Both the position numbers and the translations under genes were made by a program. From a phage: a DNA stretch of 64,000 nucleotides. Each line of letters starts with the position of its first letter. The stretch's first letter is position 1. Below, one piece after another: positions 24,283-41,430 of this stretch. The stretch lies in the sequence record PX880101.1; one strand, written 5' to 3'. Under the pieces are notes generated by a model. It was not told the DNA's origin, searched no databases, and worked only from the letters and a program-made list of their open reading frames with translations.

Positions 24283-24300
24283 TTTCTTAACTAAACTATC

Positions 24301-24328
24301 AGGGGCTTTAAAAGGCCCCTTTCTTTTT
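24301..24328 (+). terminator. Rho-independent terminator closing the plus-strand early block
   Basis: AGGGGCTTT-A-AAAGGCCCCT followed by TTCTTTTTGT. Confidence 0.6.
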
Positions 24329-24929
24329 GTCTGTATTTCTCCTACCACAAACGGCCCAGCCTGGCAAGTGGAATAATTGACTAGCCATCAATCCCACACA
24401 CTGTACAAATATACATGGAAAATAACTATTGCATAATTTTTCATTGTGTGGTAGCAAGTCCATTTTTACCCGTTTTCTCTCTCAAAATTGCACGTAATGC
24501 CGCTATTGCACAAATTTTAACCTGATGCACATCTCCAATATCTTGTCAACAACTAAAAATCTTTATAAGTCATACACTTACACAGCATCGAAAGCGTGTT
24601 CTACGCGAAAAATCGAGTATAACTATAGCCGCCAGATCTCAGAATTCACGTACGCACGCCATTCTATAGCCTGCAAAGTATTTATTCCAACCACAGAATA
24701 ACGGAATAGTCAATACCTGCATAAAATAATTATTCGTGTAAACTGCATAACATAAATCAGCTCAGGTGTCAACATTTTTCGTAAACAGTCCGAAATTATC
24801 ACGATGAGTTATCATAAACAGAGAAATCTTTAGTCGTCTAATGTTTACTGTACATTACTATACTGACTGGAATCATTAGATGACTAAGAGAAAGATAAGA
24901 AATAATTAATAATGTAATTATTTTACCTG

Positions 24930-25240
24930 TAACAATAAGGCAACTATGCAAACGAATGGCATGGCGCGACGGAGTCGCGACATAATATAAAAGCAGTAAC
25001 CATCACCCCCGTGATAGTTTGTCTGCAATCTATTAATCAGATCATAGTTGCCTTGTATTCAGTTAATCATGACATAATAAGCAAGGCAACTATAGATCTG
25101 CTAATAGTTGCCCTGCTTTTATATTATGTCATAGAAACACCCGAAGGGGTGACCAAAGGTCACCTGGCATGGCCAGTGAAAGATTATTAACTTGTTAATT
25201 GTTAACTTGCTAATTGTTTTCATGCAAACGAATGTCATGG
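24930..25240. repeat. Cluster of inverted and direct repeats (GGCAACTAT in both orientations; 18-bp inverted arms GACATAATATAAAAGCAG; CATGCAAACGAATGNCATGGC direct repeat; palindrome CGCGAC-GGA-GTCGCG)
   Basis: Read directly from the sequence. Confidence 0.6.
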
Positions 25241-25249
25241 CTTATCCTA

Positions 25250-25330
25250 TCTGTGTAAACAGTTAAGGTGTAAACTATCCAGGCGTAAACAGTCTATGCG
25301 GGAACAATCTATACGTGAACAGTGAAACAT
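25250..25330. repeat. Iteron-like array: five or six copies of GT(A/G)AAC(A) at about 15-bp spacing
   Basis: tgtgTAAACAg, gtGTAAACt, gcGTAAACAg, gGGAACAat, cGTGAACAg, GTGAAACat. Confidence 0.55.
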
Positions 25331-26805
25331 GAAATAATAACAATCGTTATTGTGTCGAAAGTGTATAAGGTGTCATAGTATGTCAGACAAGTTTTTCTCC
25401 TCTTTGTCAAGTGCTGCATGAAAATTTACAAACTGGTATGGTAGCATTTTTGCGGCCCTGTTTACATTCAGTTGTGTATGTATAACCCTTGTTGTGTGGG
25501 CGTTTAGACGTCTGGACGGTTGGAAGTCTACAGGTCAATATCTAATCTATTGGCTGCTAACTATATCCCACACAAATAGTAAGAAATACAATTGTTATGT
25601 GAGTAAACGGTAACTCATGTTATCAATCCCTGTATGGATCGCCAGTGGTGCGCATAATGGGTATTATGTTAAATTGCCCGTAATGATAACTATTCTCACA
25701 ATGATAGGTATTCTCATTCACTCCCACAAGATAGGTTGCAAATGTTGTGCCACTGTGTGAACGGCCTCACCTATTAATTTGCCTCACTGCCTCGATATTT
25801 GAGAATTGTTATAAGAATGAGAAGTATTCCCATTTCGTCCGCCTGGCAGCACTCCAGTCGCTACCGCTCATGACAGGGCAGAACTGGGTCCATTCAGATA
25901 TTTCTGGCTGACTCTTCAGGTCTGTGTGGGAAAAGCCAACCTCTCCGGCGGGGCAGGGGTAGGTCAATTAAAAAATTTACGTGGTGTATGAAGAGCCCTT
26001 CAGGTAAGGCATGTATTATGGGATGAAACACCCTTCAGGCAATGATATTTGTGGGTGGGATATTTGCTGGAAAGCCAGATATGACGGGACTCCTGGCGGG
26101 GCAGGGGTAGTACAGACAGGGGAAATATGGTGGATGTAGTTGGGTGGATTGATCAGGCAGGTAGAGTATGGAATATGTTACAAGTATGTTAAATATGGAG
26201 GATGAATATCTGTAGGATTTGTGTGTAAAATCAAAGACTTAAGTGGTGTTGTGGTATTTTCTATAAATAATTCAAGTTTAATAGGTAATATTTGTCTCTA
26301 TCCGCTTTGTGTGGTAAACAAATTCAGATGGTGTTGGTTTACAAGTGTATACATAATATACAAATTAAAGATACAAGAAACCCCCCTCCCCCTTCGGCTA
26401 CCATTCACCTTTTCCTCTGACTGGTACTTAAACACTTATTCAGACTCTTCAGGTTATCACCCATATATCATATGGCAGTGACTGGTGTCCTCCGGCCCCT
26501 CTTTCGTCACCCGTCCGCTTCGCCATGCTAATGCCATAGCCAACGGTTCGGTTGTTCACCCTGTTCACTCAGGTGTATCTCCATACCCCTTCAAACCGAA
26601 GAGAACAGAAAACCCGAATTACTCGGTAAAAGAAAAGAGAAGAACTTAATTTTATCAGGATAGGCAAGAATGTCAAGGCATGACTGCTCACTAAACAAGC
26701 AAACAGTCATGTGTGGAAGGTAAGTGATTGTGGTGGTAGGAAATTTAGTTGAAAGATGTGTTATAGGTGCGCTTCCAGCACTTTAGCCGGGCAGCTAATT
26801 GTGTG

Positions 26806-27021
26806 TCAGTCCAGCGGTTCATCCTCTACTTCACTGAAATCAATGTTCATGGTCTCTTCCCAACCATCGATCTCAGCACAAGAGTGGAGTTCTTTAGGGT
26901 TTACTCCCAAAGCCTCAGCAACAGAGTCTATATTTAACACCTCTGGCAGGTATGATTCATCGAATTCAAGGTAAATCAGGCCACGAGTGTTGTCAGCTCC
27001 ACCAAATATTTCTATCTTCAT
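26806..27021 (-). CDS. hypothetical small acidic protein (N-terminus MKIEIFGG)
   Basis: Own promoter with extended -10 (TGTATAAT) and CAGAGGAGA SD upstream on the minus strand. Confidence 0.5.
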   Translation of the reverse strand: MKIEIFGGADNTRGLIYLEFDESYLPEVLNIDSVAEALGVNPKELHSCAEIDGWEETMNIDFSEVEDEPLD

Positions 27022-27142
27022 AAAATCTCCTCTGGAAATGAGAGTGTGAACAGGGTTTTATACGTTCTAATGCACAGGAATTATACACGTTTTCCTCTTC
27101 AGGCCATGCTTTAGCATGAGGAACCTGTGTGGGCTCGGTGCT

Positions 27143-27355
27143 TCATAGTCTACCACCCCTGAACTCTTCGTGCTCAGGCATAATAGAGAACCAGATATCT
27201 ACGATGTCTTCCCACGTTAGGTCATCAGCCTCAGGATCTACCTGGAGCGAAGATGGAGAATCTTCAGAATCGAAGTTTTCCTCTTTCACTGGCTCAGCCA
27301 AGGGACATATAGTCACTCCTTTGGATGTCTCTTCAGATGCATGTGTGTTTATCAT
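27143..27355 (-). CDS. hypothetical acidic protein
   Basis: ORF in the minus-strand array. Confidence 0.45.
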   Translation of the reverse strand: MINTHASEETSKGVTICPLAEPVKEENFDSEDSPSSLQVDPEADDLTWEDIVDIWFSIMPEHEEFRGGRL

Positions 27356-27715
27356 GTTCCACCCGTGAGTATTCCGGCAACAGCCGCTATGGACGTAATG
27401 ATCATCAGGATCACCACTAAAACTTCGGACAATGTTCTCATTGTGTACCTCATATTCTCCAAACTATGTGTGGATACTATCACGAGAGTGGCAATGTGTC
27501 AACAGAAACGCCGCGAGGGTTTGGTTAAAATCCGAGCGTATGGTGATTTGGGTCAAAACGGACGTGCGTTCTCGCTACGCTCGAAATATGGAGTTGTTTG
27601 TAGGAAGCTCTTAAACGCTCTGTAATGAGATTATCTGTCCAAGGTATGCAATCGTGCACCAGATAAAGAAAAGGACGCCACAGAGCGTCCTAGGTGTCTT
27701 AAATTTGATATTTTG

Positions 27716-28015
27716 CTATACCCATGAGGGCTTATCAAGGTTGGAGTAGCTGAAAGGTGTCAAAAGGTGACTGTCAAAATCCCTCAAACTATCCAAATCT
27801 TTTTCCTCGTCCTGACACCATCTGTGCCTACATTTATTGTTGTAGTGCATGGAATGCATGGCGTTCTGCAACTTAACAGGCACAAGTGATTCAGGAGTAG
27901 ATAGTATTGTTGGGTATGCCAGAACCACCTCAAACAGTGGAAACACATCGAAACTAAAGTCTACCTCTGCAGAGGTTGATGGCATATAGGAGTATTTAGC
28001 CGCCTTTGTAGACAT
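27716..28015 (-). CDS. hypothetical protein
   Basis: ATG after GAGGTGG overlapping the upstream stop. Confidence 0.45.
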   Translation of the reverse strand: MSTKAAKYSYMPSTSAEVDFSFDVFPLFEVVLAYPTILSTPESLVPVKLQNAMHSMHYNNKCRHRWCQDEEKDLDSLRDFDSHLLTPFSYSNLDKPSWV

Positions 28016-28023
28016 AATCCACC

Positions 28024-28356
28024 TCACACAGGTTTGATAATACCTTTACCGAATAACTCTTCGTATCTAATCTTGTCCGGATCCCACTCCTGGATAATTT
28101 CGAAGACAATATCCAACCCAGGAACAATCACTTCTCCAGTGTCAAGCTTAGCAAGAACAAAACCGGAAGGTTGAATGGTTTCCCAGTTACGGCGATCAGA
28201 ATAAAATACTTCGAAAATATCACCAACCTCAATCCGTTTCTGTTGCTCAAGATGCTCAAGGTTCTCTTTCATACGGATGCAACGGATTTTTCGTACAGGC
28301 CATAGACCACCTGCATCACGTTCATTCAATTCTTTTACAGTGATCGGCATACCCAT
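28024..28356 (-). CDS. hypothetical protein
   Basis: ORF downstream of the terminator at 28378-28410. Confidence 0.5.
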   Translation of the reverse strand: MGMPITVKELNERDAGGLWPVRKIRCIRMKENLEHLEQQKRIEVGDIFEVFYSDRRNWETIQPSGFVLAKLDTGEVIVPGLDIVFEIIQEWDPDKIRYEELFGKGIIKPV

Positions 28357-28377
28357 CTCAAATCTCCTTCATAGATA

Positions 28378-28410
28378 GTAAAAAGAGGGGCCTAAGCCCC
28401 CCTCTTTGTC
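28378..28410 (-). terminator. Rho-independent terminator (minus strand)
   Basis: Minus-strand AGAGGGGGGC-TTAG-GCCCCTCT followed by TTTTTAC. Confidence 0.55.
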
Positions 28411-28411
28411 A

Positions 28412-28717
28412 TTATTCTACAGAGCGTTTGAACAGAATGTCTGCCTCAGACATGTGCTCAACCTCTTCTTCGATTTTAGCTCGACGTTTTTCAGCCTCAT
28501 ATCGAATATCGAACTCGGTAGCCACCAAAGATTTGATGAATTTAGGAGAATACAGATGATCCTGCTTCTCAACAAGAATGATATCCTTGATGGCATCTTT
28601 CAGATCTTTAATCTGAAGCTGGAGTTCCACCAGTTCTTCGATTGTTTTGCGAAGGCGATCACGTTCTGCAGTGTCAGAAGGAAGAGAGGTGAACAGTTCA
28701 ACTTTAGATTTAGCCAT
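28412..28717 (-). CDS. hypothetical coiled-coil protein
   Basis: ORF; charged heptad-like sequence. Confidence 0.5.
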   Translation of the reverse strand: MAKSKVELFTSLPSDTAERDRLRKTIEELVELQLQIKDLKDAIKDIILVEKQDHLYSPKFIKSLVATEFDIRYEAEKRRAKIEEEVEHMSEADILFKRSVE

Positions 28718-28745
28718 AGTAAGAGTCTCCTTATGTTGTTTTAAA

Positions 28746-28997
28746 TTAACGTTCTACAAAAATACCGTTCAGTTCAATAACCAGGAATTTCTGGTCTTCA
28801 CTATCGTCTCGTGCCAGCACCTCACAGACGTATCGGTCATCCCCATCATCATCGCAGTCAAATACAAGACTGAGGACTTTATCATGATAAACCTTCGCCA
28901 CTACCGCCTCATAAGTATTGCCGATTGTGAATCCAAGATAATCTCCGATGCATTTGACAACAACATGGTCGCCAGCATTCAAGTCAATCTTCGTCAT
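28746..28997 (-). CDS. hypothetical protein
   Basis: ATG after AAGGAG (internal start of listed ORF 28746-29063). Confidence 0.5.
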   Translation of the reverse strand: MTKIDLNAGDHVVVKCIGDYLGFTIGNTYEAVVAKVYHDKVLSLVFDCDDDGDDRYVCEVLARDDSEDQKFLVIELNGIFVER

Positions 28998-29152
28998 TAC
29001 TGCGCTCCTTGGGTAATAATACTGTATGTAAAACTTTAACCAGAGATGTGAATAACGCCCCAAAACACACCGATAGCGCTAAAACAGACAAGGCCATCAT
29101 TAAAGCTTCAGTAAAATCAGTCACTCCTCACCTCTTGTTAGTCACTATACTG

Positions 29153-29416
29153 TCATTTATCCTTGCCGTCAAGAACTTTTTTAAATCTTTCAGGAATATC
29201 ACCTGTTCTTAGATAGTTCATGACCTCACAAGGTTCCCACTTGAATTTCTTACAAAGCAGGGCGGCTGAGATTGTTTCATTGCGAAAAGAAAGGATATTA
29301 ATATCCCATTCTGAGAACCCCAACTTCCGAAGGGTAGCTACAGAAATCCTCACCGCAACCCAGCAGCAAAAACATGCAACAAACGCCACTGCTATAACCC
29401 ACATCAGGATGTTCAT
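29153..29416 (-). CDS. hypothetical membrane protein
   Basis: Hydrophobic N-terminus. Confidence 0.45.
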   Translation of the reverse strand: MNILMWVIAVAFVACFCCWVAVRISVATLRKLGFSEWDINILSFRNETISAALLCKKFKWEPCEVMNYLRTGDIPERFKKVLDGKDK

Positions 29417-29505
29417 ACAAGCACCTCACTGAAATACAAGACACAGTGTTAAGGTTACTGACCAGCAAATAATTAACAGTACCGTTGCAACCTTGGCAAG
29501 ATTTA

Positions 29506-29793
29506 TCATAGTGCCTCTAAGATTTCATATCCTTCGGGTCGGAATACAAGCCACTCCGTGGCTCCGTTTGGTCGATACGCTTTATACAGAACAACCTGGT
29601 CTCGGCACATGCACATGGCTACATAGTTTTCATCCACACCTGCAGCCTGCATTGCATCTTCTTCTCCGGCAACTGCTTTGCTTACAACTTCCTTGGTAGG
29701 CAGGTGTGCGATCAGCTCGTCACCATCATTAATTCCAAAATGGCTGAGTTCGCCGTTGGTATCTTTAATCTTAATCTTAACCAGATCTTTCAT
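29506..29793 (-). CDS. hypothetical small acidic protein (tandem family member)
   Basis: MKDLVKIKIK N-terminus, acidic C-terminus; ATGA coupling. Confidence 0.5.
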   Translation of the reverse strand: MKDLVKIKIKDTNGELSHFGINDGDELIAHLPTKEVVSKAVAGEEDAMQAAGVDENYVAMCMCRDQVVLYKAYRPNGATEWLVFRPEGYEILEAL

Positions 29794-30122
29794 TAGTCTT
29801 CCCCCAGGTTCAAAGGTCCTAAGATTTCATATGCCAGATTAGAAGTTACAAGAGGGTCTTCTGCGTCTTTAGTATTATACCACCCGTGAATAACCAGAGT
29901 CCCACTTTGTTTCATGTCCAACTGGAACTCTTCTGCCGTTTCCTCATCCAGCTCCAAGATTTCCATAAGGTATTTGATGTTAGGGAGGTATGCAGCTGTT
30001 ACAGTCCCCTCTACCAGACCTTCAGGCCAACCTACATCTGGATGACAAGTAGGAACCAGGTTGGTCAGCTTAATGGTGTACGCTTTTTCTGCACGAGCCT
30101 TCAGTAACGGGTCAATCTTCAT
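29793..30122 (-). CDS. hypothetical small acidic protein (tandem family member)
   Basis: ORF; coupled starts and stops. Confidence 0.5.
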   Translation of the reverse strand: MKIDPLLKARAEKAYTIKLTNLVPTCHPDVGWPEGLVEGTVTAAYLPNIKYLMEILELDEETAEEFQLDMKQSGTLVIHGWYNTKDAEDPLVTSNLAYEILGPLNLGED

Positions 30123-30472
30123 TATTCGTCCTCCTCTTCGGTACCTGCTTCCAGTAATAAGTTAAGAATATCTTCTGCACAAGGCTCATAGAACTCTTGG
30201 CCTTCATTATCGATGATTTTATAGTCATCTCCACGAATAATCAGGGGATCACTCTCAAAATTATCGAGACCTTTAACAACGACAACACGATCGATTGCCA
30301 TCATTGTAAGAACTTTATCGACATCTTCCTCTGCTACACCATACTGCAGCAGAATGTCTTTGGTAGGAGGAACAGCATCCACCACAACACCGTTACCAAA
30401 ACCTTCCGGGAGTTTAGCTAAAATATCTTCCGGAACCACATTCACATCAAAACCAGTAATTTCTACTTTCAT
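30122..30472 (-). CDS. hypothetical small acidic protein (N-terminus MKVEITG)
   Basis: ORF; acidic C-terminus EEEDE. Confidence 0.5.
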   Translation of the reverse strand: MKVEITGFDVNVVPEDILAKLPEGFGNGVVVDAVPPTKDILLQYGVAEEDVDKVLTMMAIDRVVVVKGLDNFESDPLIIRGDDYKIIDNEGQEFYEPCAEDILNLLLEAGTEEEDE

Positions 30473-30733
30473 TTACAGCACCTCTTCGTCAACTACTTCA
30501 TAAAAATGGCTTGGGATTGCAATAGCGTTCTCACCTTCACCCAAGAACACTGTCCCACTAACGATTAACATTAGAAGAACGTCTGCGATACCTTCCTCGG
30601 GGACGTTGCCAAAACCTTTGATCAGCTCGTAGGTTGGAATATTTACCTCTAAGATGTCACCATCTTTAGAACGGAAATCAACACCGTCCTGAATCTCTGC
30701 CGTTTCAAGGTTTTTCAATTTAATCTTCATCAA
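30473..30733 (-). CDS. hypothetical small acidic protein (tandem family member)
   Basis: MMKIKLKNL N-terminus; C-terminus VVDEEVL. Confidence 0.5.
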   Translation of the reverse strand: MMKIKLKNLETAEIQDGVDFRSKDGDILEVNIPTYELIKGFGNVPEEGIADVLLMLIVSGTVFLGEGENAIAIPSHFYEVVDEEVL

Positions 30734-30809
30734 TCGGTCTCCTGTCTTGTTAAGATGAAGGTATTATTTCACACAGGGTTGGCGTTGTCAACACCTGTGT
30801 GCAAGAAAA

Positions 30810-31205
30810 TTACTGAAACAGTGCAGATAAATTACCTTCTGGTGGGAACTTATCTGCCAAAAACGGTGTTAGCACAGTAGCCTTCTGAAGATCTGGGGTC
30901 CACTCGTTGTTCAGAACATCCCAGTAGTACGCAATATTGCTGTGTGGGTGCCGCATTACGAACTTTTTCCCTTCGTAGTCATCTGAAACCTCTACAGAAG
31001 AAATAACAACAGAATCTTCAAGGGTTTCTTCATAGAAAGATCCACCTTCAAATTTCCAACGAGATGCAAGAGCCCCTGCCTTGAACGCTGCAGATAACGG
31101 ACTGTCGGCAAGAACATACATTTCTTGCACTCTGTCGCTGCGATCTTTGCTTCTTACGTTGTATACAGTATCTGAGCTATACTCAACACGGTATAGGCTT
31201 ACCAT
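30810..31205 (-). CDS. hypothetical protein, paralogue of 33017-33415
   Basis: Shared segments HP.S...YW....W.P...A..L. Confidence 0.55.
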   Translation of the reverse strand: MVSLYRVEYSSDTVYNVRSKDRSDRVQEMYVLADSPLSAAFKAGALASRWKFEGGSFYEETLEDSVVISSVEVSDDYEGKKFVMRHPHSNIAYYWDVLNNEWTPDLQKATVLTPFLADKFPPEGNLSALFQ

Positions 31206-31537
31206 TACCGCACCTCCTCAATAACTTCCACATCTGAACCTACCACAAATGCAAAAGGACAGGTTTCATGAAAGATATCCGGATCGCCGCCAAGCTTGCT
31301 AACAATTTCTCCACCACTAATAAACACAAGCTCACCGATATTCATCAGATTGCTGAAATAGTACCCATAATGATTAAAGAATGCAGCAGGGTCAGGTAGA
31401 CTAGTAGCCTCAAGCACTACATCGGTTGAGGTTACTTTCTTATCATAACCTCTCGCCTTTTGAGATGCAAGATCTGCAGAATCCTCAGGAGACCGGAGAT
31501 GCACAGGAATTGTTTCACCAATAAAGCGTACTTTCAT
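31205..31537 (-). CDS. hypothetical small acidic protein (tandem family member)
   Basis: MKVRFIG N-terminus; C-terminus GSDVEVIEEVR. Confidence 0.5.
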   Translation of the reverse strand: MKVRFIGETIPVHLRSPEDSADLASQKARGYDKKVTSTDVVLEATSLPDPAAFFNHYGYYFSNLMNIGELVFISGGEIVSKLGGDPDIFHETCPFAFVVGSDVEVIEEVR

Positions 31538-31541
31538 ATTA

Positions 31542-31805
31542 TCACCCAACAACCATAGCTTCAAAAGGAGTCATGAACGAATAAACGGCATCATCATCTG
31601 CTTCAGGGAATGCTCCCAAAGACTTCATGTCTGAGCCCTTGACAAATACAAGGTTTTGATCAAAAGCTTCTTGGGGGTCAATCCGATACATATTTCGTAG
31701 AATATCGCTTACCTCCTCATCAAGAGGTGAGTATGCTGTGCACGTTTTTCCGATCAAGCTTTGAGAATCAGGGTAGCCACCTGAAGTTTTAAAATAAACA
31801 ATCAT
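31542..31805 (-). CDS. hypothetical small acidic protein (tandem family member)
   Basis: ORF in tandem array. Confidence 0.5.
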   Translation of the reverse strand: MIVYFKTSGGYPDSQSLIGKTCTAYSPLDEEVSDILRNMYRIDPQEAFDQNLVFVKGSDMKSLGAFPEADDDAVYSFMTPFEAMVVG

Positions 31806-31896
31806 ATAGTATCACCTCTGGTAAGAGATTGGGATTCCTTTCCCATAAATAATTACAAATCTTCCTTAGCGAGGAAGTATGCTAATCCAAGCAGGA

Positions 31897-32166
31897 TTAT
31901 TCCTCTACAATCTCATACACATCAGGAGTTACAATCAACTCTTCTCCATTACCAGGTGCAACAAACACCACCAAACCCTCAGGTGTGTGCTTTTTAGCCA
32001 TCTCGATAACATCTTCTCGCAGAGCTGGCTCCATCAGATCAAAACCTTCACCCAGGGCATCACGAACCACCTTCATATAGTCCACTGGTTGTGCTTCAAC
32101 AATCATGCCTTCAACCAGACCACAATTTTTGTCTGCCAGCTCAGTTTTGAATAATTTAATTTTCAT
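31897..32166 (-). CDS. hypothetical small acidic protein (tandem family member)
   Basis: MKIKLFK N-terminus; C-terminus VYEIVEE. Confidence 0.5.
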   Translation of the reverse strand: MKIKLFKTELADKNCGLVEGMIVEAQPVDYMKVVRDALGEGFDLMEPALREDVIEMAKKHTPEGLVVFVAPGNGEELIVTPDVYEIVEE

Positions 32167-32303
32167 TTAGAGGTCTCCTCAATTATTTGATATTAATAGC
32201 CGTAACCTAACACATTAACTACAACTGCGATTGCAAACATAATTTCAAAGCATGCAATCTCTACATTTGGGACTAATTTCTTAATCACACCCATTGTAGC
32301 ACC

Positions 32304-32624
32304 TCATTCTCCAAAGTCAATCTTTACTTTGCCTTTCCCCTTACCTTTCTTTCCACCGCATTTAGCCAGCTGACGTGCTGCAACATCTACCATACGGTCA
32401 GTTGCCTCGTAAGCATCACTGCCTTTAGCCTTGGCAATAACTTCTTTTCCAGAATTGTCAAAAATGAACGCCATAACTTCCTGGTGATCATTTTCAACTT
32501 TTACACTCACACGTGCATAGTTAACAGAGGGATGTAAACGCTCCAGCTTGGACATTTTGCGGGAAATAAAAGATACCATACCTTCTGTGATTTCTACATT
32601 GTTGCCAGTGATTTCAATTTGCAT
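32304..32624 (-). CDS. hpf: Ribosome hibernation promoting factor / RaiA-family protein (HPF homologue)
   Basis: MQIEITGNNVEITEGM...KLE...VKVE...AKAKGSDAYEATDRMVDVAARQLAK aligns along its length with E. coli HPF (recalled as MQLNITGNNVEITEAL...KLEQ...LKVEK...ASAEGQDMYAAIDGLIDKLARQLTK). Confidence 0.75.
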   Translation of the reverse strand: MQIEITGNNVEITEGMVSFISRKMSKLERLHPSVNYARVSVKVENDHQEVMAFIFDNSGKEVIAKAKGSDAYEATDRMVDVAARQLAKCGGKKGKGKGKVKIDFGE

Positions 32625-32673
32625 AACGTGTTCCTTTTAAGGAAGAGGGAATAACTATCTCTCTTTGAAAACA

Positions 32674-32702
32674 ATGATACTAAATCTGAAGCGTTGTGTC
32701 AA
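32674..32702 (-). promoter_or_regulatory. sigma70-like promoter TTGACA-N17-TATCAT driving hpf (minus strand)
   Basis: Minus-strand hexamers with 17-nt spacer, about 50 nt upstream of the hpf ATG. Confidence 0.55.
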
Positions 32703-32708
32703 CAGTTT

Positions 32709-32999
32709 TTACAGCTTGTTGTCGATAGTTTTTAAAATATCCACAGCAAGATCTGCCATTTTTCGAACATACTCTGCAAACTCAACAGGATCCTTGATCA
32801 AAGAATTCACAGGGTCGTACCCTAGAGCGTTTAAAATGGCTGCAGCATCTACAACCTTCTCATCATTTGCGAAGATCTCTCCGTCAAACTTGTAGGTCCA
32901 TTTTGAGTCAACCTTAGCAGAGCAGGGTTTGTCCATGCTTGTTACACCATCGTCTTTAAACTCTCCTGCGTTATCAATATTTAGAATTAAATCCATCAT
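32709..32999 (-). CDS. hypothetical protein
   Basis: ORF. Confidence 0.5.
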   Translation of the reverse strand: MMDLILNIDNAGEFKDDGVTSMDKPCSAKVDSKWTYKFDGEIFANDEKVVDAAAILNALGYDPVNSLIKDPVEFAEYVRKMADLAVDILKTIDNKL

Positions 33000-33016
33000 G
33001 GTGACACCTCACTGTT

Positions 33017-33415
33017 TCAGTTTAGCTTTTCTTCAACAACCCCATAACTTGGGGCAGAGTCAAGAGCTTTCTGGTTTAAAAGTGGCGTAGCAGAATCTGC
33101 AAACGGTGTCCAAGTTTTTGTTCTGGCATTCCAGTAATGCTTCACTCTGGAATCTGGATGCACTATAACAAAAACTTTTTCACTTGTCAACACATTAATT
33201 TCTTCTACACCCTTGCTGATAATTTCTCCGTCATAGCCCCCAGTCTGGTATCCTTCGTACCAGGTTCTTGCATAGGCATAGCCAGCCTGCCAGCATGCAG
33301 CCTCCTCCGAGGTGGAGACTACGTAGAAGTCTTTCTCAAATTCCGGAATACGCCCTTGCTTTACGCTCCAAGCTCCGCGAATTTTCATTGTTACTTTGAA
33401 AAGCTTGTTCTTCAT
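33017..33415 (-). CDS. hypothetical protein, paralogue of 30810-31205
   Basis: Shared segments with 30810-31205. Confidence 0.55.
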   Translation of the reverse strand: MKNKLFKVTMKIRGAWSVKQGRIPEFEKDFYVVSTSEEAACWQAGYAYARTWYEGYQTGGYDGEIISKGVEEINVLTSEKVFVIVHPDSRVKHYWNARTKTWTPFADSATPLLNQKALDSAPSYGVVEEKLN

Positions 33416-33416
33416 A

Positions 33417-33671
33417 CTACCGCTCTACAATCTCTACGTCTGTTCCTACACCGAAGGCATAGTAATGTTCTTCCCCAAAGTAATACTTGGGGACACCCGC
33501 TTTGATCAGATCTAACCCGCGAATAAATACCACACCGTGTGATACAGTGGAATGCTTCTGACGCACAGGATCGTTGTCAGGCAACCATTCAAAGTACACC
33601 GCAGGTACAACCTTTCCCTTCAGGAAGGATTGTCCCAAGTAGACGTTAGAATCAAGAATTTTAACCTTCAT
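33417..33671 (-). CDS. hypothetical small protein (MKVKIL family)
   Basis: MKVKILDSNVYLGQ...GTDVEIVER. Confidence 0.5.
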   Translation of the reverse strand: MKVKILDSNVYLGQSFLKGKVVPAVYFEWLPDNDPVRQKHSTVSHGVVFIRGLDLIKAGVPKYYFGEEHYYAFGVGTDVEIVER

Positions 33672-33888
33672 TCTCGTCCTCCACTATCTCTACATCCTCA
33701 CCAAGGGCAAAGTTGTAGGTCCACTGGCTGTCAAAGCAGTCCTGAGATGCACCAGCGGCAATAAGATCTGCACCTTTTATTTTTAAAAGGTCAGGATAAT
33801 CTTCGTTAGGGATAGCGGTAAACACTTTCCCCACTAAGGGCTCCTGACCAATATAGAAGCTTGAATCTAAAACTTTAACTTTCATCAA
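33661..33888 (-). CDS. hypothetical small protein (MKVKVL family)
   Basis: MMKVKVLDSSFYIGQ...GEDVEIVED. Confidence 0.5.
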   Translation of the reverse strand: MMKVKVLDSSFYIGQEPLVGKVFTAIPNEDYPDLLKIKGADLIAAGASQDCFDSQWTYNFALGEDVEIVEDENEG

Positions 33889-34172
33889 CGGTCTCCCTCA
33901 GGCGGTTGTGGGACGTAAACACTGTTACGAATATCGTCAGCAGTGTAGTAATAAGTGGTTCCAACCCTATCTCGGGCTGCAATGTACTCTGCTATACCAA
34001 CAAGTGCCATTGATTTGGTGGCGTATCTTCCCCACTCGTTAGCTCCCCAGTAGAATTTAGACCAGTAGGGAATAAGACCGAACAAATATACCTTTTGACG
34101 AACTTCCCAGTAAGTGCCTTTTCCGACAAGTTTAAACTCTACTTCACTACTGTTAATCTTTTTCATTATCAA
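33885..34172 (-). CDS. hypothetical protein
   Basis: ATGA coupling. Confidence 0.45.
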   Translation of the reverse strand: MIMKKINSSEVEFKLVGKGTYWEVRQKVYLFGLIPYWSKFYWGANEWGRYATKSMALVGIAEYIAARDRVGTTYYYTADDIRNSVYVPQPPEGDR

Positions 34173-34465
34173 TCTCCCTCTACCGTGGTCGGATTGTCAG
34201 TAAGAAATTGAGCATTGGCTGGAGGCACGCCTGACATTTTCCACACAACCATAAGTTTATAACCAGGCACTCTATTAAGTGCAGATCGAGTAGAGTTTGT
34301 GCACGTATACTTTCGCTTTCCAAACCCGTTCTCCATCATAATCCAGTACCCAGTATCTTTGTCACCAGGTATCGGTAGACCACCTTCATCAACCCACTGA
34401 ATTGACCACGGCACGATGGCTACAGCTTTATATTTAAACTTTTTAAACCACTCAAAAAGTTTCAT
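34169..34465 (-). CDS. hypothetical protein
   Basis: ORF. Confidence 0.45.
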   Translation of the reverse strand: MKLFEWFKKFKYKAVAIVPWSIQWVDEGGLPIPGDKDTGYWIMMENGFGKRKYTCTNSTRSALNRVPGYKLMVVWKMSGVPPANAQFLTDNPTTVEGD

Positions 34466-34560
34466 AATTCAGCCCCGCATAGACATAATCACTATAAACA
34501 GGCAAACAATGAATCCGAATGCCACGCCACCCATAAACGTTAATATTGATGCAATCATAG

Positions 34561-34746
34561 TCAATCAGCCTCGCCTGGCAACTCTTCTACCTTAACATGC
34601 CGAAAAGTGTTACCGTAATGGTTGATCCATGACATCAGCTCACTTTCTTGCTCTTCCTCTGGGATGAACTCTCGAATACTGACAAGTTTTAAGAAAACCC
34701 AATCACAATCTGCACCCATTCTACCAGACAGACAATAGTGCTTCAT
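34561..34746 (-). CDS. hypothetical protein (start uncertain)
   Basis: Internal ATG after GGAGGG. Confidence 0.35.
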   Translation of the reverse strand: MKHYCLSGRMGADCDWVFLKLVSIREFIPEEEQESELMSWINHYGNTFRHVKVEELPGEAD

Positions 34747-34765
34747 AAAAACCCTCCCGCCCGGT

Positions 34766-34960
34766 TTAGAATATTGCTTCTTCCATTGCGCCTGAGAGCA
34801 ACAAAGAGGCAATCTGGCTAACATTCATCTCAGACTCTACTTCCTCCCCTTTGAAAGGTTCGCGGCAGAATAGGACTGTTTCAGGACTTTTACTTCGAAC
34901 AATATAATACAAATCATTCAATGTGTTGTAGTAATAAGTGTTAAAACGTAAGTTTTTCAT
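34766..34960 (-). CDS. hypothetical protein
   Basis: ORF. Confidence 0.4.
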   Translation of the reverse strand: MKNLRFNTYYYNTLNDLYYIVRSKSPETVLFCREPFKGEEVESEMNVSQIASLLLSGAMEEAIF

Positions 34961-35244
34961 TTTCTAGTCCCCTTCTTAGATTTTTGTGCAGAAACGCTTT
35001 CTGCAATACGAGACAGGCGTTCTTCTGAAGCTTTACCTATCCCAGGTTTCTTGAGCGGGTTATCTTTATGACCGCAATCCAATTGGATATTGGATACCTC
35101 CCCAATCTTGTAAGTCAATTCTAGCAAAAGGTTGTCGTCCTTGTCAAATGTTTTTACGATAAATTTTTTATCGTTCTCCTGAACTTCATATCTGGTACCT
35201 GCAGTATACAGCATGGTGCCATCAGCATAGGATATCCAGATCAT
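34957..35244 (-). CDS. hypothetical protein
   Basis: ATGA coupling. Confidence 0.45.
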   Translation of the reverse strand: MIWISYADGTMLYTAGTRYEVQENDKKFIVKTFDKDDNLLLELTYKIGEVSNIQLDCGHKDNPLKKPGIGKASEERLSRIAESVSAQKSKKGTRK

Positions 35245-35588
35245 TGAGCCTCCTTTTGCTGCAACAGCATTAACTCTTTGTTAGAGATCTTTACTGCTGT
35301 TTTTATTGTTCCATCTTCACGAAACCACGACCAGAACTCTACAGTGTCACCACTATCAAGTAAAGCATACCCATGGTAAAAATCTTTGTCCTTAGACAGT
35401 TTCTCATCGATATCTGCATCGACACATTCGTGATCCATAGCATTTTGCCTGAACGCATCGGTTATGCCAATGCACGCCTTGCTCTCAAGACTGGTATATC
35501 CGATATCTTTTAATTCAGTTTCCCAAGTCCAGTACCCTATAAAAGCTAAAACAGCTACCCACAGTAATAACGTTTTAATCTTTGGCAT
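35241..35588 (-). CDS. hypothetical protein with N-terminal signal anchor
   Basis: MPKIKTLLLWVAVLAFIGYW hydrophobic N-terminus. Confidence 0.5.
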   Translation of the reverse strand: MPKIKTLLLWVAVLAFIGYWTWETELKDIGYTSLESKACIGITDAFRQNAMDHECVDADIDEKLSKDKDFYHGYALLDSGDTVEFWSWFREDGTIKTAVKISNKELMLLQQKEAQ

Positions 35589-35650
35589 TCTCTCTACCTC
35601 TTTCTTAGTTTATTTCACTATGGCACATCCTTTGTGCCATATCTCAACTA

Positions 35651-36121
35651 CTACTTAAATAGTAGTTCAAAATAGTGCAAAATTAACAGAAGTTGAACTA
35701 CACCTAGTGCAACGGCGAGTATGTTAATCTTAGAATCGAAAAACTTCTTAACTTTTACTCTAAAAGGTTCCTTAATGTCCTTTACGATCCTATCTATAGA
35801 TGACCTCATATCCCTGATTACCATCCTGAACATTAAAGACGGATGCTCCCCCATCTCTGTAACGGAATCGAAAACATACTCTCTTCGGTCATAAGGGCCG
35901 CCAGCTCTGCGTATTAACCTCTCCACAGAGACCTCGAACGTCACACCTGTAACGTAATCATCTATAACAAGTCGTGACGGGTCTTTACCTTTACTATCAA
36001 GAGGTATCAAAGTTATCTTTCCAGATTTTGTTAAAATTTCCCCTTTTTCAAGCAAGGTGTACCAATGCTCTCTGCCAAGACTGTTGAGGCACGTTTTTAC
36101 ATATTTAACAAACATCGTCAC
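35651..36121 (-). CDS. hypothetical protein with C-terminal TM helix
   Basis: Hydrophobic C-terminus. Confidence 0.5.
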   Translation of the reverse strand: MTMFVKYVKTCLNSLGREHWYTLLEKGEILTKSGKITLIPLDSKGKDPSRLVIDDYVTGVTFEVSVERLIRRAGGPYDRREYVFDSVTEMGEHPSLMFRMVIRDMRSSIDRIVKDIKEPFRVKVKKFFDSKINILAVALGVVQLLLILHYFELLFK

Positions 36122-36303
36122 CCCTCATCGCACGTCTGATATAACCACTCTATAAAATCTTGATACCATTCGCCCTCTGAGCGCTCCGTAGGCCAATAAT
36201 CTTCACCCTCTCGTGCATTAAAATCTGAGTATTCAACTTTCCACTCCTTTACCAGCTCGTGGAGAAGGTTTTCAGCCTGCTCTAAAGATTTATTTTTTAC
36301 CAT
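36118..36303 (-). CDS. hypothetical protein
   Basis: ATG after AAGGAGA. Confidence 0.4.
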   Translation of the reverse strand: MVKNKSLEQAENLLHELVKEWKVEYSDFNAREGEDYWPTERSEGEWYQDFIEWLYQTCDEG

Positions 36304-36522
36304 TGCTGTCTCCTTTTTCAAGATAGTTATACATCAGAACTGCACCACCTAAGATGGCTACCAGTAACAATATCCCAGATAGCATCTCAATAAACATGGC
36401 TTGAAACACTGGAAGGTCTCCCTAAATTAACGCACCATTTTAAATACATGCTCTTTTCCCATAAAGGTGCCTGGCTAAGATCTGCGTAGAACGCAATCTC
36501 TTTAAGAACAGTATAGATAGTT

Positions 36523-36750
36523 TTAGGTGCGGTCTCCATCCCTACTCTCCTTCCTGATATTCTTGTAGTAATCAACTAGGCACATTATTACGATGAAGAT
36601 AACAACAGGCCAAAAAGGTGCAGCAGTGATGATGGTGATAAAATCATCAAACTTCACCCTTCGTCTGGACACGATGCATACACCTGTCAAGAATACCGCT
36701 GTTATAACGGACATTACCAGGTAACCTATTAGCACAACATTTATACTCAT
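36523..36750 (-). CDS. hypothetical membrane protein (two TM helices)
   Basis: Hydrophobic. Confidence 0.45.
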   Translation of the reverse strand: MSINVVLIGYLVMSVITAVFLTGVCIVSRRRVKFDDFITIITAAPFWPVVIFIVIMCLVDYYKNIRKESRDGDRT

Positions 36751-36780
36751 TGGTCCTCCCTTTGTAGGTTAAATTGTATA

Positions 36781-37314
36781 CTACAAATGGTCGCTGAGGG
36801 TGTCAAGAAAATTATCCCGTTCTTTCTCAGAGTTTTCATGTGTGTAGCTGAAAAACATATCGAGAATAACCTTATTGATATATTCCAGCTCCTCTGTGTT
36901 CAGATGCTTAGCAGGATCTACAATGACATCCCAAATATCATACAGACCACACTCATGATACCCATAACGCCACTCAATTGTCAAGCTGAGCGGCAAATCT
37001 TTACCTTCACAAACAACCTTCCATCTACATATGTTGGTATCTGGTCGTACCTGTGCACGGTACACCTGCACAAAATCCAATTTGAATTTGAGGTACTCGT
37101 CATACAATTTAAGCACAAAGCTCTCGATTTGTGGAGACACTTTTGCAGCAAACTGTGCGTATTTGTACTTGCACTGGATGATCTTTCTGCGTTTTGCAGT
37201 TAAATTTTTTGCCGCCAGTTGTTCTTCAGTGTATCTCCACCTACGATCAACAAACGCAACAGGGTCTTTGTCCCCATATAGGTCTTCCCAGTTAATCAGA
37301 AGCATACCTGTCAC
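36781..37314 (-). CDS. hypothetical protein
   Basis: ORF. Confidence 0.5.
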   Translation of the reverse strand: MTGMLLINWEDLYGDKDPVAFVDRRWRYTEEQLAAKNLTAKRRKIIQCKYKYAQFAAKVSPQIESFVLKLYDEYLKFKLDFVQVYRAQVRPDTNICRWKVVCEGKDLPLSLTIEWRYGYHECGLYDIWDVIVDPAKHLNTEELEYINKVILDMFFSYTHENSEKERDNFLDTLSDHL

Positions 37315-37544
37315 TCCTCCACAACTTCAAGGCCTTTACCGCCTCGCTCTGGCAGATTACTTAAAGATAGGTAATACATATAATCAGGAGAGATCCTGCC
37401 AGACTCTGCACCTGCAGCTAGTAAATCCTTCCCTTTAACCAGGACAACATTCTCGTTTGCAGATAGCCGTTTTGCTTCCACAATTTTACCAACACAGTCA
37501 ACCAAGGAAGGGTACCCTAAATCTGTAAGAAATTTAACTTTCAT
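37311..37544 (-). CDS. hypothetical small protein (MKVKFL family)
   Basis: MKVKFLTDLGYP...VVLVKGKDLLAAGAES...LEVVEE. Confidence 0.5.
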   Translation of the reverse strand: MKVKFLTDLGYPSLVDCVGKIVEAKRLSANENVVLVKGKDLLAAGAESGRISPDYMYYLSLSNLPERGGKGLEVVEE

Positions 37545-37581
37545 GCTACCTCCTACCTACCGTCCCTGGTAAGATAAATTA

Positions 37582-37980
37582 TTACTGAACAGAGCGCGGT
37601 GCTGGGAAGGATAACTCTTCTAAAGAGAAGATTTCATTTCCTACCACCCAAGTTGCTGGGTCATCTGGATCAACAGGTTGGATAATCATTACCTCATCCG
37701 CCTCGCACACACGTTTCCCACCCATAGTAGCGTCAGCCACTAACATACGCGGCTCTTCAGAAATGCACAGGTAGCCACCTCGGCCCACTGTTCCTTCCAC
37801 GGGATCCTGCCCTTTGACCACAATGAATACCTTCTCTCCTGTGGCGATATTACTTTTCACACTAACAGTTTGACCAACTTTAGATGTACCGATCTTGGTG
37901 GCTTCAAACATTAAATCCCGAATTACTGTTGCATAGTTGCCGGACACTTTCTTACCTTCTTTAGTAATCTCAATCTTCAT
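37582..37980 (-). CDS. hypothetical protein (N-terminus MKIEITKEG)
   Basis: ORF. Confidence 0.5.
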   Translation of the reverse strand: MKIEITKEGKKVSGNYATVIRDLMFEATKIGTSKVGQTVSVKSNIATGEKVFIVVKGQDPVEGTVGRGGYLCISEEPRMLVADATMGGKRVCEADEVMIIQPVDPDDPATWVVGNEIFSLEELSFPAPRSVQ

Positions 37981-38216
37981 AATCTAGGCTCCTTAAATGA
38001 ATCTATGTAATCAATTAAATCCCAAGCATCGCGATGGGCTGTCAGAGGGTATACTTCTCCGAGAGGGATCATAGCAATAAGTCTATCAAAAACCCAGTCT
38101 GGACGCAACATTTTATGGTGATATTCCCACTCACCTTCCACAGATTTTTTCTCAGTGATCAGGATCTCTGTGTAGTGTTTCGCCTGTCTTGAGTAGATTG
38201 AAAATGACTTGTACAT
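37977..38216 (-). CDS. hypothetical protein
   Basis: Internal ATG after AAGAGGGGG. Confidence 0.4.
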   Translation of the reverse strand: MYKSFSIYSRQAKHYTEILITEKKSVEGEWEYHHKMLRPDWVFDRLIAMIPLGEVYPLTAHRDAWDLIDYIDSFKEPRL

Positions 38217-38252: not shown

Positions 38253-38537
38253 CTACCAGGTTACTGTCAAGTAGGCAACCGTATTATTTTTCTCTGGGGA
38301 GATGCCAACAACATCTACCTGCAGACCTCCTGCCCTTAAATCTCCAACAATGTGCGGGAAGTAATCTGAGAGATGCGAGGGTAGATTTATCGAAAATCCG
38401 CACCCCAGAAAGCCTGCTAACGCTTTATTTTGTATCTCCCCTACAATCGCATCATAAATGGAGTTAAGCTCGTCAGGGAGCGTTACAGGACGTTTTAGCG
38501 CTAACTGGTGTAATTTGTCCTTAGCACTCATTTTCAT
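38253..38537 (-). CDS. hypothetical protein
   Basis: ATG overlaps the methyltransferase stop (ATGA). Confidence 0.45.
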   Translation of the reverse strand: MKMSAKDKLHQLALKRPVTLPDELNSIYDAIVGEIQNKALAGFLGCGFSINLPSHLSDYFPHIVGDLRAGGLQVDVVGISPEKNNTVAYLTVTW

Positions 38538-39067
38538 TTCAGGTCTACCTCTGGTGGTGCCAACCACATAAATGGCGGCAAGCCTAAACGGTTTTTCTTA
38601 TCCCACACAAAATATGCATATGCTTGCCCGTCAGTTCTGCCATTTGATTGAAAAGATGGACGCTTAGATATTGTGATCACAGTGGTAGGTGCATTATCAA
38701 GCCACCATTCAAATCTGGCTTTGCTTTCCAGAAAATTAAGACGCAAAAGCATAATAACTACGTCAGCATCTTTCAACGCCTTGTCTACAAACTCACGAGC
38801 CAAACTGTATGGTGGGTTGGTGATAATACAGTCAACATGGTTGTATTCTGTATTCAGATAGTCAACACCTTCTTGGATTTCTCCCCATGCAGATCCTAAC
38901 GGCATACGGGAGTAGAACACACCTGAGGCACTATTCCTGCAAGGCTCTAAGTAGGTCCAGTCTTCTGGGAACGGAATAAGGTCATACAGCCCTTCTGCAC
39001 ACCACTCCGGTGTCACATACTCATCGTAGGCGTTACGTTGTTCATCAGGTTTTCGAGCACAAGTCAT
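38534..39067 (-). CDS. DNA methyltransferase (N6-adenine or N4-cytosine type, NPPY motif)
   Basis: IITNPPYSLAREF catalytic motif. Confidence 0.6.
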   Translation of the reverse strand: MTCARKPDEQRNAYDEYVTPEWCAEGLYDLIPFPEDWTYLEPCRNSASGVFYSRMPLGSAWGEIQEGVDYLNTEYNHVDCIITNPPYSLAREFVDKALKDADVVIMLLRLNFLESKARFEWWLDNAPTTVITISKRPSFQSNGRTDGQAYAYFVWDKKNRLGLPPFMWLAPPEVDLK

Positions 39068-39118: not shown

Positions 39119-40168
39119 TTAAGCTTCTTCGACAATCCCTGCACCCAGGATTTTTTCATTGAGCTCTTTTGCTGTTTTAATAATATTGTCCACCAGACGC
39201 TTGCGAGTCTTATCTTTTACCTTAACCTCTTCACCGCCGTTCAGGGTTGTCTTCAATTGGGACAGAATGTCTTGAAGTTCAACGACAGAGAATCGCTGCA
39301 GATCTTCTGAGGTAATCTCGCCTAAGGCAATCTTAACGGTCTCACCACTTTCCATCTGCAGGTTCAGGAACACAGTGTGAACATCACCTTTCGAACCACC
39401 CGCTTTTGCAGATTCAACAGCATGAACTAGCTCATCTAAAGAGGTGCACTGGTGAATCTCCGGAAGACCTGCTTCACCTAGCACACCTTCTTCATCACCT
39501 TTTGCCAAAAGCTTTTTAGGTTTTTGTCCGTTCTGGATGCGTTGTATGTTGCCTTCATCCAGAATGATAGCTCCAGTTCGAGCTGCCAGCTCCTCTCCGT
39601 CCAACCACACTTCGCCACCAGCTGTGATGGATGCGATCTCATCTTCTGTCAGCACCCAACCGTAGTATTTTTCGATCAGGCGTTCGAAACGTTTTTTCCA
39701 GTAGCTGACCTGAGTATTCATGTTCACACCATTGCCATAAGTGCCGCCTTGATAGTAGTGGAACATAAACTCTGTGTCCGGAGCCACAGTGCGTTCTTTG
39801 CAACCCAGCCATAGGATTGTTCCAGCAGAGCAGCACATCCCTTCAGCATGTGCAACAACGCTTGCCTGAGACTCGCGGAATGCCTGTAGATAAGCCATTG
39901 CAATGTGCACGCAACCCCCAGGGCTATTGATGATCACACGAATGCTTTCTTCCGGCTGAGCCATACGGATCGTCTGCAGACGAGACATATGATCCTGCAG
40001 GTCCTCCAAATCGTCGATATAAAGAACGTGGTCAACAACAGGTGTTGGGTAGCTGTATGTTTCCATAATACCACCCGGCATACCAAACATTTTATTACTC
40101 ATAGGTTCGAAACCGTTCTGTTTTTCTTTCATGCCGTGTACCATGGTGCTGCGAGGTGTTAAATTCAT
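39119..40168 (-). CDS. ClpP/S14-family serine protease with about 150-aa C-terminal extension
   Basis: VINSPGGCVHIAMAYL and GMCCSAGTIL (active-site Ser context). Confidence 0.65.
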   Translation of the reverse strand: MNLTPRSTMVHGMKEKQNGFEPMSNKMFGMPGGIMETYSYPTPVVDHVLYIDDLEDLQDHMSRLQTIRMAQPEESIRVIINSPGGCVHIAMAYLQAFRESQASVVAHAEGMCCSAGTILWLGCKERTVAPDTEFMFHYYQGGTYGNGVNMNTQVSYWKKRFERLIEKYYGWVLTEDEIASITAGGEVWLDGEELAARTGAIILDEGNIQRIQNGQKPKKLLAKGDEEGVLGEAGLPEIHQCTSLDELVHAVESAKAGGSKGDVHTVFLNLQMESGETVKIALGEITSEDLQRFSVVELQDILSQLKTTLNGGEEVKVKDKTRKRLVDNIIKTAKELNEKILGAGIVEEA

Positions 40169-40228: not shown

Positions 40229-40540
40229 TTATTTAGCAATCACTATGGAATACTTACGATTGTCAGAAGCATCACAACTCAATGATTGCCAGTCTACCAC
40301 ATACCACGTATCATTGTCAACAATTACTTTATCGCCTGTTCTGTAGCAGATGCTGCTTTCAATAATTCGAGACTCGATAAAGAATCTGTGTCGGCGCTCA
40401 CGTAGCAACGCTAAGTTGATTATGTTACCACCGCTGTCCTTGATCCACACATTCTTGGATCCTTTATTTGCCAAAATTGTCTCGCCGTTATAGACAAACA
40501 GGCAGTATATTTTATTCAGTTTCTCTTGTATTGTAGCCAT
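40229..40540 (-). CDS. hypothetical protein
   Basis: Promoter TTGACA-N17-TATTAT (40566-40597) and GAGAGAAGGA SD. Confidence 0.5.
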   Translation of the reverse strand: MATIQEKLNKIYCLFVYNGETILANKGSKNVWIKDSGGNIINLALLRERRHRFFIESRIIESSICYRTGDKVIVDNDTWYVVDWQSLSCDASDNRKYSIVIAK

Positions 40541-40565
40541 ACTGTCCTTCTCTCTGTTTTGTCCG

Positions 40566-40597
40566 ATAATAATATCTAAAGTTTACCTATTTGTCAA
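40566..40597 (-). promoter_or_regulatory. sigma70-like promoter TTGACA-N17-TATTAT (minus strand)
   Basis: Minus-strand hexamers; preceded by hairpin GGGTGG-TTATT-CCACCC, a possible terminator after phoH. Confidence 0.55.
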
Positions 40598-40641
40598 CAA
40601 CTGTTTTAGATATTTAAGGGTGGAATAACCACCCTTCTGTA

Positions 40642-41430
40642 TTACTCGGAAACAGGGGTCCAAATATGATTTGCACGATCCTCAATAAGATTGAGTGCGA
40701 TCTGACGACCCAACCCAGAACGAACGACATCGTCTGGACTATCAAAGCTGATCATTCCAACCTCAGGATCTGGATGACGAGTAAAGAAATCCGTCACCCA
40801 TGCAAGGCCAGATTTACCAGGGATGTCACGTTGGCTATTATCACCCATAATTACAAGGGTGGCTTGATCAGAGATCCTTGTGATAATTGACAACATTTCT
40901 TCAGGGTTAGTTTGCTGTGCCTCGTCAATCAGGACAAAGCATCGCTCATCGAAACTACGACCACGAATGCTTTCAACTTCACAAATCTCGATACGGCTGT
41001 TCTGACCGTCTCCCAGCATTGCGGCAAAAGCACCTTTGCCAACACGACGACAAATCGTGTCCATCATGCTTCGAAGATAGGGCCACAGTTTCTGCATTGC
41101 ATTTCCAGGTTTAAATCCTGAAGTCTTTCCTGTCTGAACGTAAGGACGTGCAACAATAATCTTATCAATCTCGTTCTTACGCAGAAGATCACCTGCATAT
41201 GCAGATGCCATGAATGTCTTACCGGATCCAAACACACCGTTTACAATAATAATCTTACGTGACCCTAGATAATCAAGATACTTTTGCTGCTTCTTATTCA
41301 TTGGTCGGAGAGCTGGAGCGGTGTGCTCTCTTTCGTCAGCAAATTTCTCAGCAGCCTTACGCAGGCGATCAGATTTGCGAGCCTCTCTAGCTTCATCACG
41401 CATGCGCTTTGTTTCTTTAGCTCGACCCAT
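40642..41430 (-). CDS. phoH: PhoH-like ATPase
   Basis: Walker A VNGVFGSGKTFMA and PhoH-like length and layout. Confidence 0.8.
   Translation of the reverse strand: MGRAKETKRMRDEAREARKSDRLRKAAEKFADEREHTAPALRPMNKKQQKYLDYLGSRKIIIVNGVFGSGKTFMASAYAGDLLRKNEIDKIIVARPYVQTGKTSGFKPGNAMQKLWPYLRSMMDTICRRVGKGAFAAMLGDGQNSRIEICEVESIRGRSFDERCFVLIDEAQQTNPEEMLSIITRISDQATLVIMGDNSQRDIPGKSGLAWVTDFFTRHPDPEVGMISFDSPDDVVRSGLGRQIALNLIEDRANHIWTPVSE

Follow-up and report, generated by a model that had tools for sequence, protein, structure and literature searches.

The genome of an rV5-like Escherichia phage raises the question of whether a ribosome hibernation factor has given rise to further small proteins in its neighbourhood. 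The window analysed is a stretch of 64,000 nucleotides from sequence record PX880101.1, and the phage is a myovirus of the genus Vequintavirus. On its minus strand, the window encodes a short ribosome hibernation promoting factor (HPF; 32304–32624) that starts with MQIEITGNNVEIT. Three other small genes on the same strand start in a similar manner, namely g30122 (30122–30472) with MKVEITGFDVNVV, g37582 (37582–37980) with MKIEITKEGKKV, and g26806 (26806–27021) with MKIEIFGGADN. A first-pass annotation had drawn attention to these four N-termini, and translation of the minus-strand open reading frames (ORFs) yields them exactly as described. It was suggested there that some of the proteins may be diverged HPF-fold paralogues or, alternatively, that the likeness reflects "just convergent beta-strand starts". 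The shared M(K/Q)(I/V)EI(T/F) start is very probably a coincidence or convergence in four unrelated small proteins, not a trace of descent from HPF.

The product of 32304–32624 comprises 106 amino acids and is a genuine short HPF. It matches the short HPF/YfiA (RaiA) family PF02482 (Ribosomal_S30AE) of Pfam over its full length, with an E-value of 4.2e-15 for residues 3 to 89 (56.7 bits against a cutoff of 23.7). In the PDB, E. coli HPF (2rql) is matched with an E-value of 4.2e-15, and the values for 2rql, 4v8h, and 6h4n lie between 4e-15 and 2e-14. The phage protein and its E. coli counterpart are 44% identical, and Smith–Waterman shuffles of this pair give z = 18, even without the first 13 residues of both proteins. 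It is basic, with an isoelectric point (pI) of 9.04 and a net charge of +3. The two proteins have the N-terminal sequence MQ[LI].ITGNNVEITE in common. Since E. coli HPF begins with MQLNITGNNVEITEAL, the start of the phage HPF can be traced to the bacterial HPF family. MQLNITGNNVEITEAL forms beta-1 of the beta-alpha-beta-beta-beta-alpha fold of bacterial HPF. The peptides published for the HPF of phage rV5 (GSDAYEATDR, VENDHQEVMAFIFDNSGK, and VKIDFGE) are found exactly in the translated product, which is the same protein as this already published HPF. The rV5 HPF (ABI79209) was detected by mass spectrometry in cell extract, and was not detected in high-salt 70S preparations (Mizuno et al. 2019, PMC6375957). 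It is mentioned further in PMC6969025.

The likeness among the four starts is short. Its identical or near-identical part covers the first 5 to 7 residues, and it stops after 11 to 14 residues in each pair of motif proteins. All four genes are annotated as coding sequences in related phages and fall into four separate PHROGs. If M[KQ][IV]E[IV] is treated as a pre-set pattern, four occurrences are seen, against 0.12 expected from the position-specific residue frequencies of the 128 coding-strand ORFs. This pattern was picked post hoc, and the expectation of 0.12 ignores the selection. When the columns of residues 2 to 5 were shuffled, at least four members were found in some reduced-alphabet class in 45% of the trials. 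A polar-hydrophobic-polar-hydrophobic start is seen in nine proteins, compared with 5.3 expected (P = 0.06). The shared start is real, yet without remarkable statistical excess, because the pattern was selected after inspection and shuffling reproduces such counts in 45% of cases.

The search for HPF relatives among the other three proteins gave negative results at the level of sequences and profiles. As single sequences, none of them matches PF02482 at E ≤ 1, and the same family is left unmatched at E ≤ 10 by 11 members of the g37582 family and 53 members of the g30122 superfamily. When all PDB chains were searched with profiles or sequences, no HPF or YfiA chain was retrieved at E ≤ 10 for g30122, g37582, or g26806. 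In hhalign comparisons with an HPF alignment of 49 distinct sequences, only residues 1–11 to 1–14 were aligned, with probabilities of 0.2–2.9%; for g37582 the match comprised residues 1–12, with a probability of 0.6%. After removal of the first 12 residues on both sides, g30122 ranked 6th and g37582 10th among 33 neighbouring control proteins. g26806 ranked first, but with a probability of 5% and a 23-column match that is out of register. The scores of the three shortened candidates fall into the range of the controls. Smith–Waterman shuffles gave marginal values that were not consistent, with z = -0.2 for g37582 against E. coli HPF, and for g26806 z = 0.8 against the phage HPF and 2.9 against E. 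coli HPF. The local alignment behind the last value (z ~3) was rejected, as it spans 27 gapped columns and is 12 residues out of register. A blastp match of g37582 to HPF (E 0.098, with 34 sequences in the database) was likewise discarded, because it was not replicated against E. coli HPF or the profiles. In that alignment, the segment of g37582 that faces the start of HPF helix alpha-2 (GQDPVEGT) contains proline and glycine, and the residues that follow it are rich in these two amino acids (9 of 44).

The charge of the candidates differs from that of HPF as well. The pI and net charge are 4.05 and -21 for g30122, 4.91 and -4 for g37582, and 4.05 and -16 for g26806. Compared with the basic phage HPF, these three acidic proteins would lack the charge expected for binding 16S rRNA in the decoding channel of the 30S subunit. 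g26806, with 71 amino acids, is also shorter than the 88-position Pfam domain of HPF. All three candidates thus differ from the HPF family in domain and charge, and g30122 also differs in its predicted fold. For g37582 and g26806, paralogy to HPF is excluded at the level of sequences and profiles.

g30122 encodes a very acidic protein of 116 amino acids. Its AlphaFold model (pLDDT 78.5) shows an SH3-like small beta-barrel, in which two helices are inserted between strands 2 and 3 and an acidic helix forms the C-terminus. The check by structure prediction that had been suggested for an HPF fold therefore returned a predicted fold unrelated to HPF. Residues 2 to 5, the very residues of the shared start, form the first strand of the modelled barrel and belong to its structural core. 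Comparison with known SH3-like small beta-barrels (KOW of Spt5/NusG, ribosomal L24/eL14, OapB, PsaE, and FeoA) gave weak scores, and the two-helix insert and the acidic C-terminal helix set g30122 apart from them. Neither g30122 nor its paralogues match the KOW and SH3 families of Pfam, and there is no evidence of a function common to g30122 and these barrels. The sole significant structural neighbour of the model is A0A6M5CA15 of Vibrio phage Vc1, an uncharacterised protein of 86 amino acids found by Foldseek among the predicted structures of BFVD (E 5.5e-5, target-normalised TM 0.81, 20% identity). This protein stems from another phage and another host, and no sequence-level link to g30122 was found.

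g30122 belongs to a family of five tandem paralogues between 29506 and 32166 on the minus strand, here named family B. Two members of 95 and 109 amino acids lie directly downstream (29506–29793 and 29793–30122) and were assigned by blastp, joint alignments, and profile search; the gene at 29506 matches g30122 with a blastp E-value of 0.001. The gene at 30473–30733 encodes 86 amino acids, starts with (M)MKIKLKNL, and ends with YEVVDEEVL. It matches g30122 with a blastp E-value of 0.004, and g30122 in turn matches the PHROG of this gene, phrog_12359, at E 0.024. The fifth member (31897–32166, 89 amino acids, start MKIKLFKTEL) was found by family B profile search. The members other than g30122 begin with MKIKL. 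A DUF7399 match of P0063 was set aside, as it falls in a part of the fragment that is unrelated to family B.

g37582 and g26806 constitute separate orphan families that are specific to Vequintavirus. g37582 encodes an acidic protein of 132 amino acids assigned to phrog_5748, and g26806 a very acidic protein assigned to phrog_12108, both PHROGs of unknown function. The 11 members of the g37582 family have no Pfam match at E ≤ 10, and g37582 has no PDB match at this threshold. Relatives of g37582 in an index of 5.8 billion proteins are all at least 83% identical. With HMMER, 1.84 billion representatives were searched exhaustively, which extended the set by three full-length relatives with 45–49% identity that retain MKI[ES]I; a repetitive protein of 3837 amino acids from the same search (E 3e-5) was judged compositional and disregarded. 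Apart from rV5-like phages, the family is represented by a few metagenomic relatives only. Among sequenced phages, both g37582 and g26806 are confined to rV5-like genomes, as determined by tblastn in the case of g26806. The phrog_5748 profile matches g37582 from residue 12 on, and the distant relatives P0067–P0069 conserve the first 11 residues. The sequences behind this profile were probably annotated with a start further downstream. The AF2 model of g37582 was built from a 12-sequence alignment with 83–99% identity and is of low confidence (pLDDT 34.5, pTM 0.25); it begins strand-strand-helix. For g26806, no Pfam family was found above noise, and its PDB matches were noise only.

Taken together, the most probable explanation is that each of the four proteins would open directly with an amphipathic beta-strand, in which hydrophobic and charged residues alternate, after lysine or glutamine as the second codon. 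The start of HPF was inherited from bacterial HPF. In g30122, the MKIKL start of family B has the variant form MKVEIT, which is predicted to form beta-1 of the SH3-like barrel. The opening strand is seen in known structures for HPF and in the model for g30122, and g37582 and g26806 presumably start with a beta-strand as well. Lysine is the most frequent second residue in this gene set (24 of 128 genes), which presumably reflects the usual preference at translation initiation. Of the two possibilities raised in the first-pass annotation, convergent strand starts hold up, given the position of residues 2 to 5 in the modelled barrel of g30122 and a count within post-hoc expectation. Diverged HPF-fold paralogues do not, as there is no likeness in sequence or profile past the first 11 to 14 residues and no likeness in fold for g30122.

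Several points weigh against convergence. The pre-set pattern is nominally striking, and a stretch of 11 kb holds all four genes. g37582 aligns with the phage HPF over 75 columns with 25% identity and a shuffle z of 3.3 (p ~0.009), and z is still about 2 without the motif. The HPF profile used in hhalign is shallow (Neff 1.7) and comprises Enterobacteriaceae only. Viral contigs searched for relatives of HPF had given only two near-identical loci, and a genome scan only HPFs of Enterobacteriaceae. The shallow profile was offset with the deep Pfam model, which was equally negative, and with PDB sequences. Finally, the case against HPF ancestry of g37582 and g26806 relies on sequences and profiles.

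A rival explanation is a duplication of the phage HPF, by which at least one of the three proteins would be a highly diverged HPF-fold paralogue with only the N-terminal strand still recognisable. The (near-)identical first 5 to 7 residues, the proximity of HPF in the same early-gene block, and the marginal alignment and low-confidence strand-strand-helix start of g37582, which resembles that of HPF, are in line with such an origin. It is nevertheless improbable: g30122 differs in its predicted fold and sits in another paralogue family, no candidate gives a Pfam, PDB, or hhalign signal, and g26806 is shorter than the domain. The acidity of all three, together with the z of -0.2 for g37582 against E. 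coli HPF and its proline and glycine opposite the start of helix alpha-2, speaks against it as well. What chance this origin retains comes almost entirely from the fold of g37582. Still less probable is a more specific version, in which the first ~65 residues of g37582 would be what is left of a duplicated phage HPF (beta-1, alpha-1, beta-2, and beta-3) fused to an unrelated C-terminal part; the marginal score against the phage HPF and the modelled strand-strand-helix start are its whole basis. If it were true, rV5-like phages would possess, besides HPF, an acidic protein derived from it, with a possible role as decoy or antagonist of hibernation factors. Had the small proteins turned out to be HPF paralogues, this would have amounted to a family of ribosome-hibernation modulators in rV5-like phages and to a notable strategy of host takeover.

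Selection on the start itself, independent of the fold, is unlikely, though less so than HPF ancestry. MK[IV][EK][IVL] would then be a signal of small early proteins, such as a translation enhancer or a tag for the ClpP-like protease encoded at 39119–40168. Between 26.8 and 38 kb, eight small genes begin with M(M)K[IV][KE][IVLF], all nine proteins with a polar-hydrophobic-polar-hydrophobic start are at most 135 amino acids long, and distant orthologues of g37582 have kept the start. However, five of the eight genes stem from two paralogue families and are hence not independent, and the enrichment is not significant once paralogues are collapsed (seven seen against 4.5 expected, P = 0.14). The core strand in the g30122 model would suffice to explain the conservation, and nothing ties the starts to the ClpP-like protease. 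Least probable is an origin in which one and the same stretch of DNA was placed before different genes, as a mobile translation-initiation cassette, a scar left by recombination, or the product of a recent partial duplication. Several genes of one 11-kb block do have the same first codons, but the 40 bases 5' of the four starts are unrelated save for a generic Shine-Dalgarno sequence. Synonymous codons differ inside the motif (AAA/AAG, ATT/ATA/GTA, GAA/GAG, and ATT/ATC/ATA), and the likeness in DNA stops after ~18 bases. A shared cassette or recent duplication is ruled out by these three observations.

With convergence as the preferred explanation, the locus contains one HPF, already published, amid fast-evolving orphan early genes. 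A short N-terminal motif of this kind offers no basis for reading homology. Small acidic proteins have expanded in tandem in this block, and at least one of them is predicted to be SH3-like; they are candidates for host-interaction studies.

HPF is surrounded by three families of small, mostly acidic proteins, arranged in tandem or dispersed on the minus strand. In addition to family B, family A comprises five genes of the form MKVK...DVEIVE, with phrog_5009 shared within the family. It includes two paralogues at 33417–33671 and 33661–33888 (MKVK[IV]LDS ... DVEIVE), which were linked by blastp. Further members found by blastp are located at 37311–37544, 31205–31564, and 31542–31805; the E-values within the family are 1.6e-15, 1.2e-7, 5e-4, 1.5e-4, and 0.003. 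Family C consists of two genes of ~131 amino acids (30810–31205 and 33017–33415; blastp). A single superfamily of A, B, C, and g37582 was considered and rejected, with hhalign probabilities below 2% for every pair; no hhalign link among these four groups and HPF was found.

In the records of APCEc02, nomo, magaca, naswa, ECP2303, and ECP2309, the family B gene at 31897–32166 carries the label "sigma 54 modulation factor". Its product has no Pfam match and no HPF signal. In APCEc02, gene 082 bears this label, while the true HPF, gene 083, is called "hypothetical". The label on 31897–32166 is an off-by-one error propagated from APCEc02.

The region from 26.8 to 38.6 kb contains ~34 tightly packed small minus-strand genes, nearly all of which are labelled "hypothetical" in related phages. 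A literature search found no paper on the small proteins of this block. The block ends with g26806, beside a junction of ~2.5 kb (~24300–26800) that has no convincing ORF and where the plus-strand block (end 24282) meets the minus-strand block. In this junction, GC content falls as low as 0.39, neither a tRNA nor an Rfam family was found, and phage nomo has no annotation there except a 34-bp repeat_region. On the opposite side, upstream in the direction of transcription and just outside the block, related-phage annotation places a ClpP-like protease subunit of 349 amino acids (39119–40168), a DNA methyltransferase (38534–39067), and two PhoH-like genes (40229–41430), all on the minus strand.

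The 9-kb core of the motif region shares 99.5% identity with Escherichia phage rV5_ev146 and more than 97% with many further Vequintavirus genomes. Positions 29000–38000 of the window are also matched by 18 GenBank records (MG0656xx) titled "Campylobacter phage", with C. jejuni given as the host. For two of these among the matches listed, C12 and C14, the identity to the present E. coli rV5-like sequence is 97.9%. The C. jejuni host given for these records looks doubtful.

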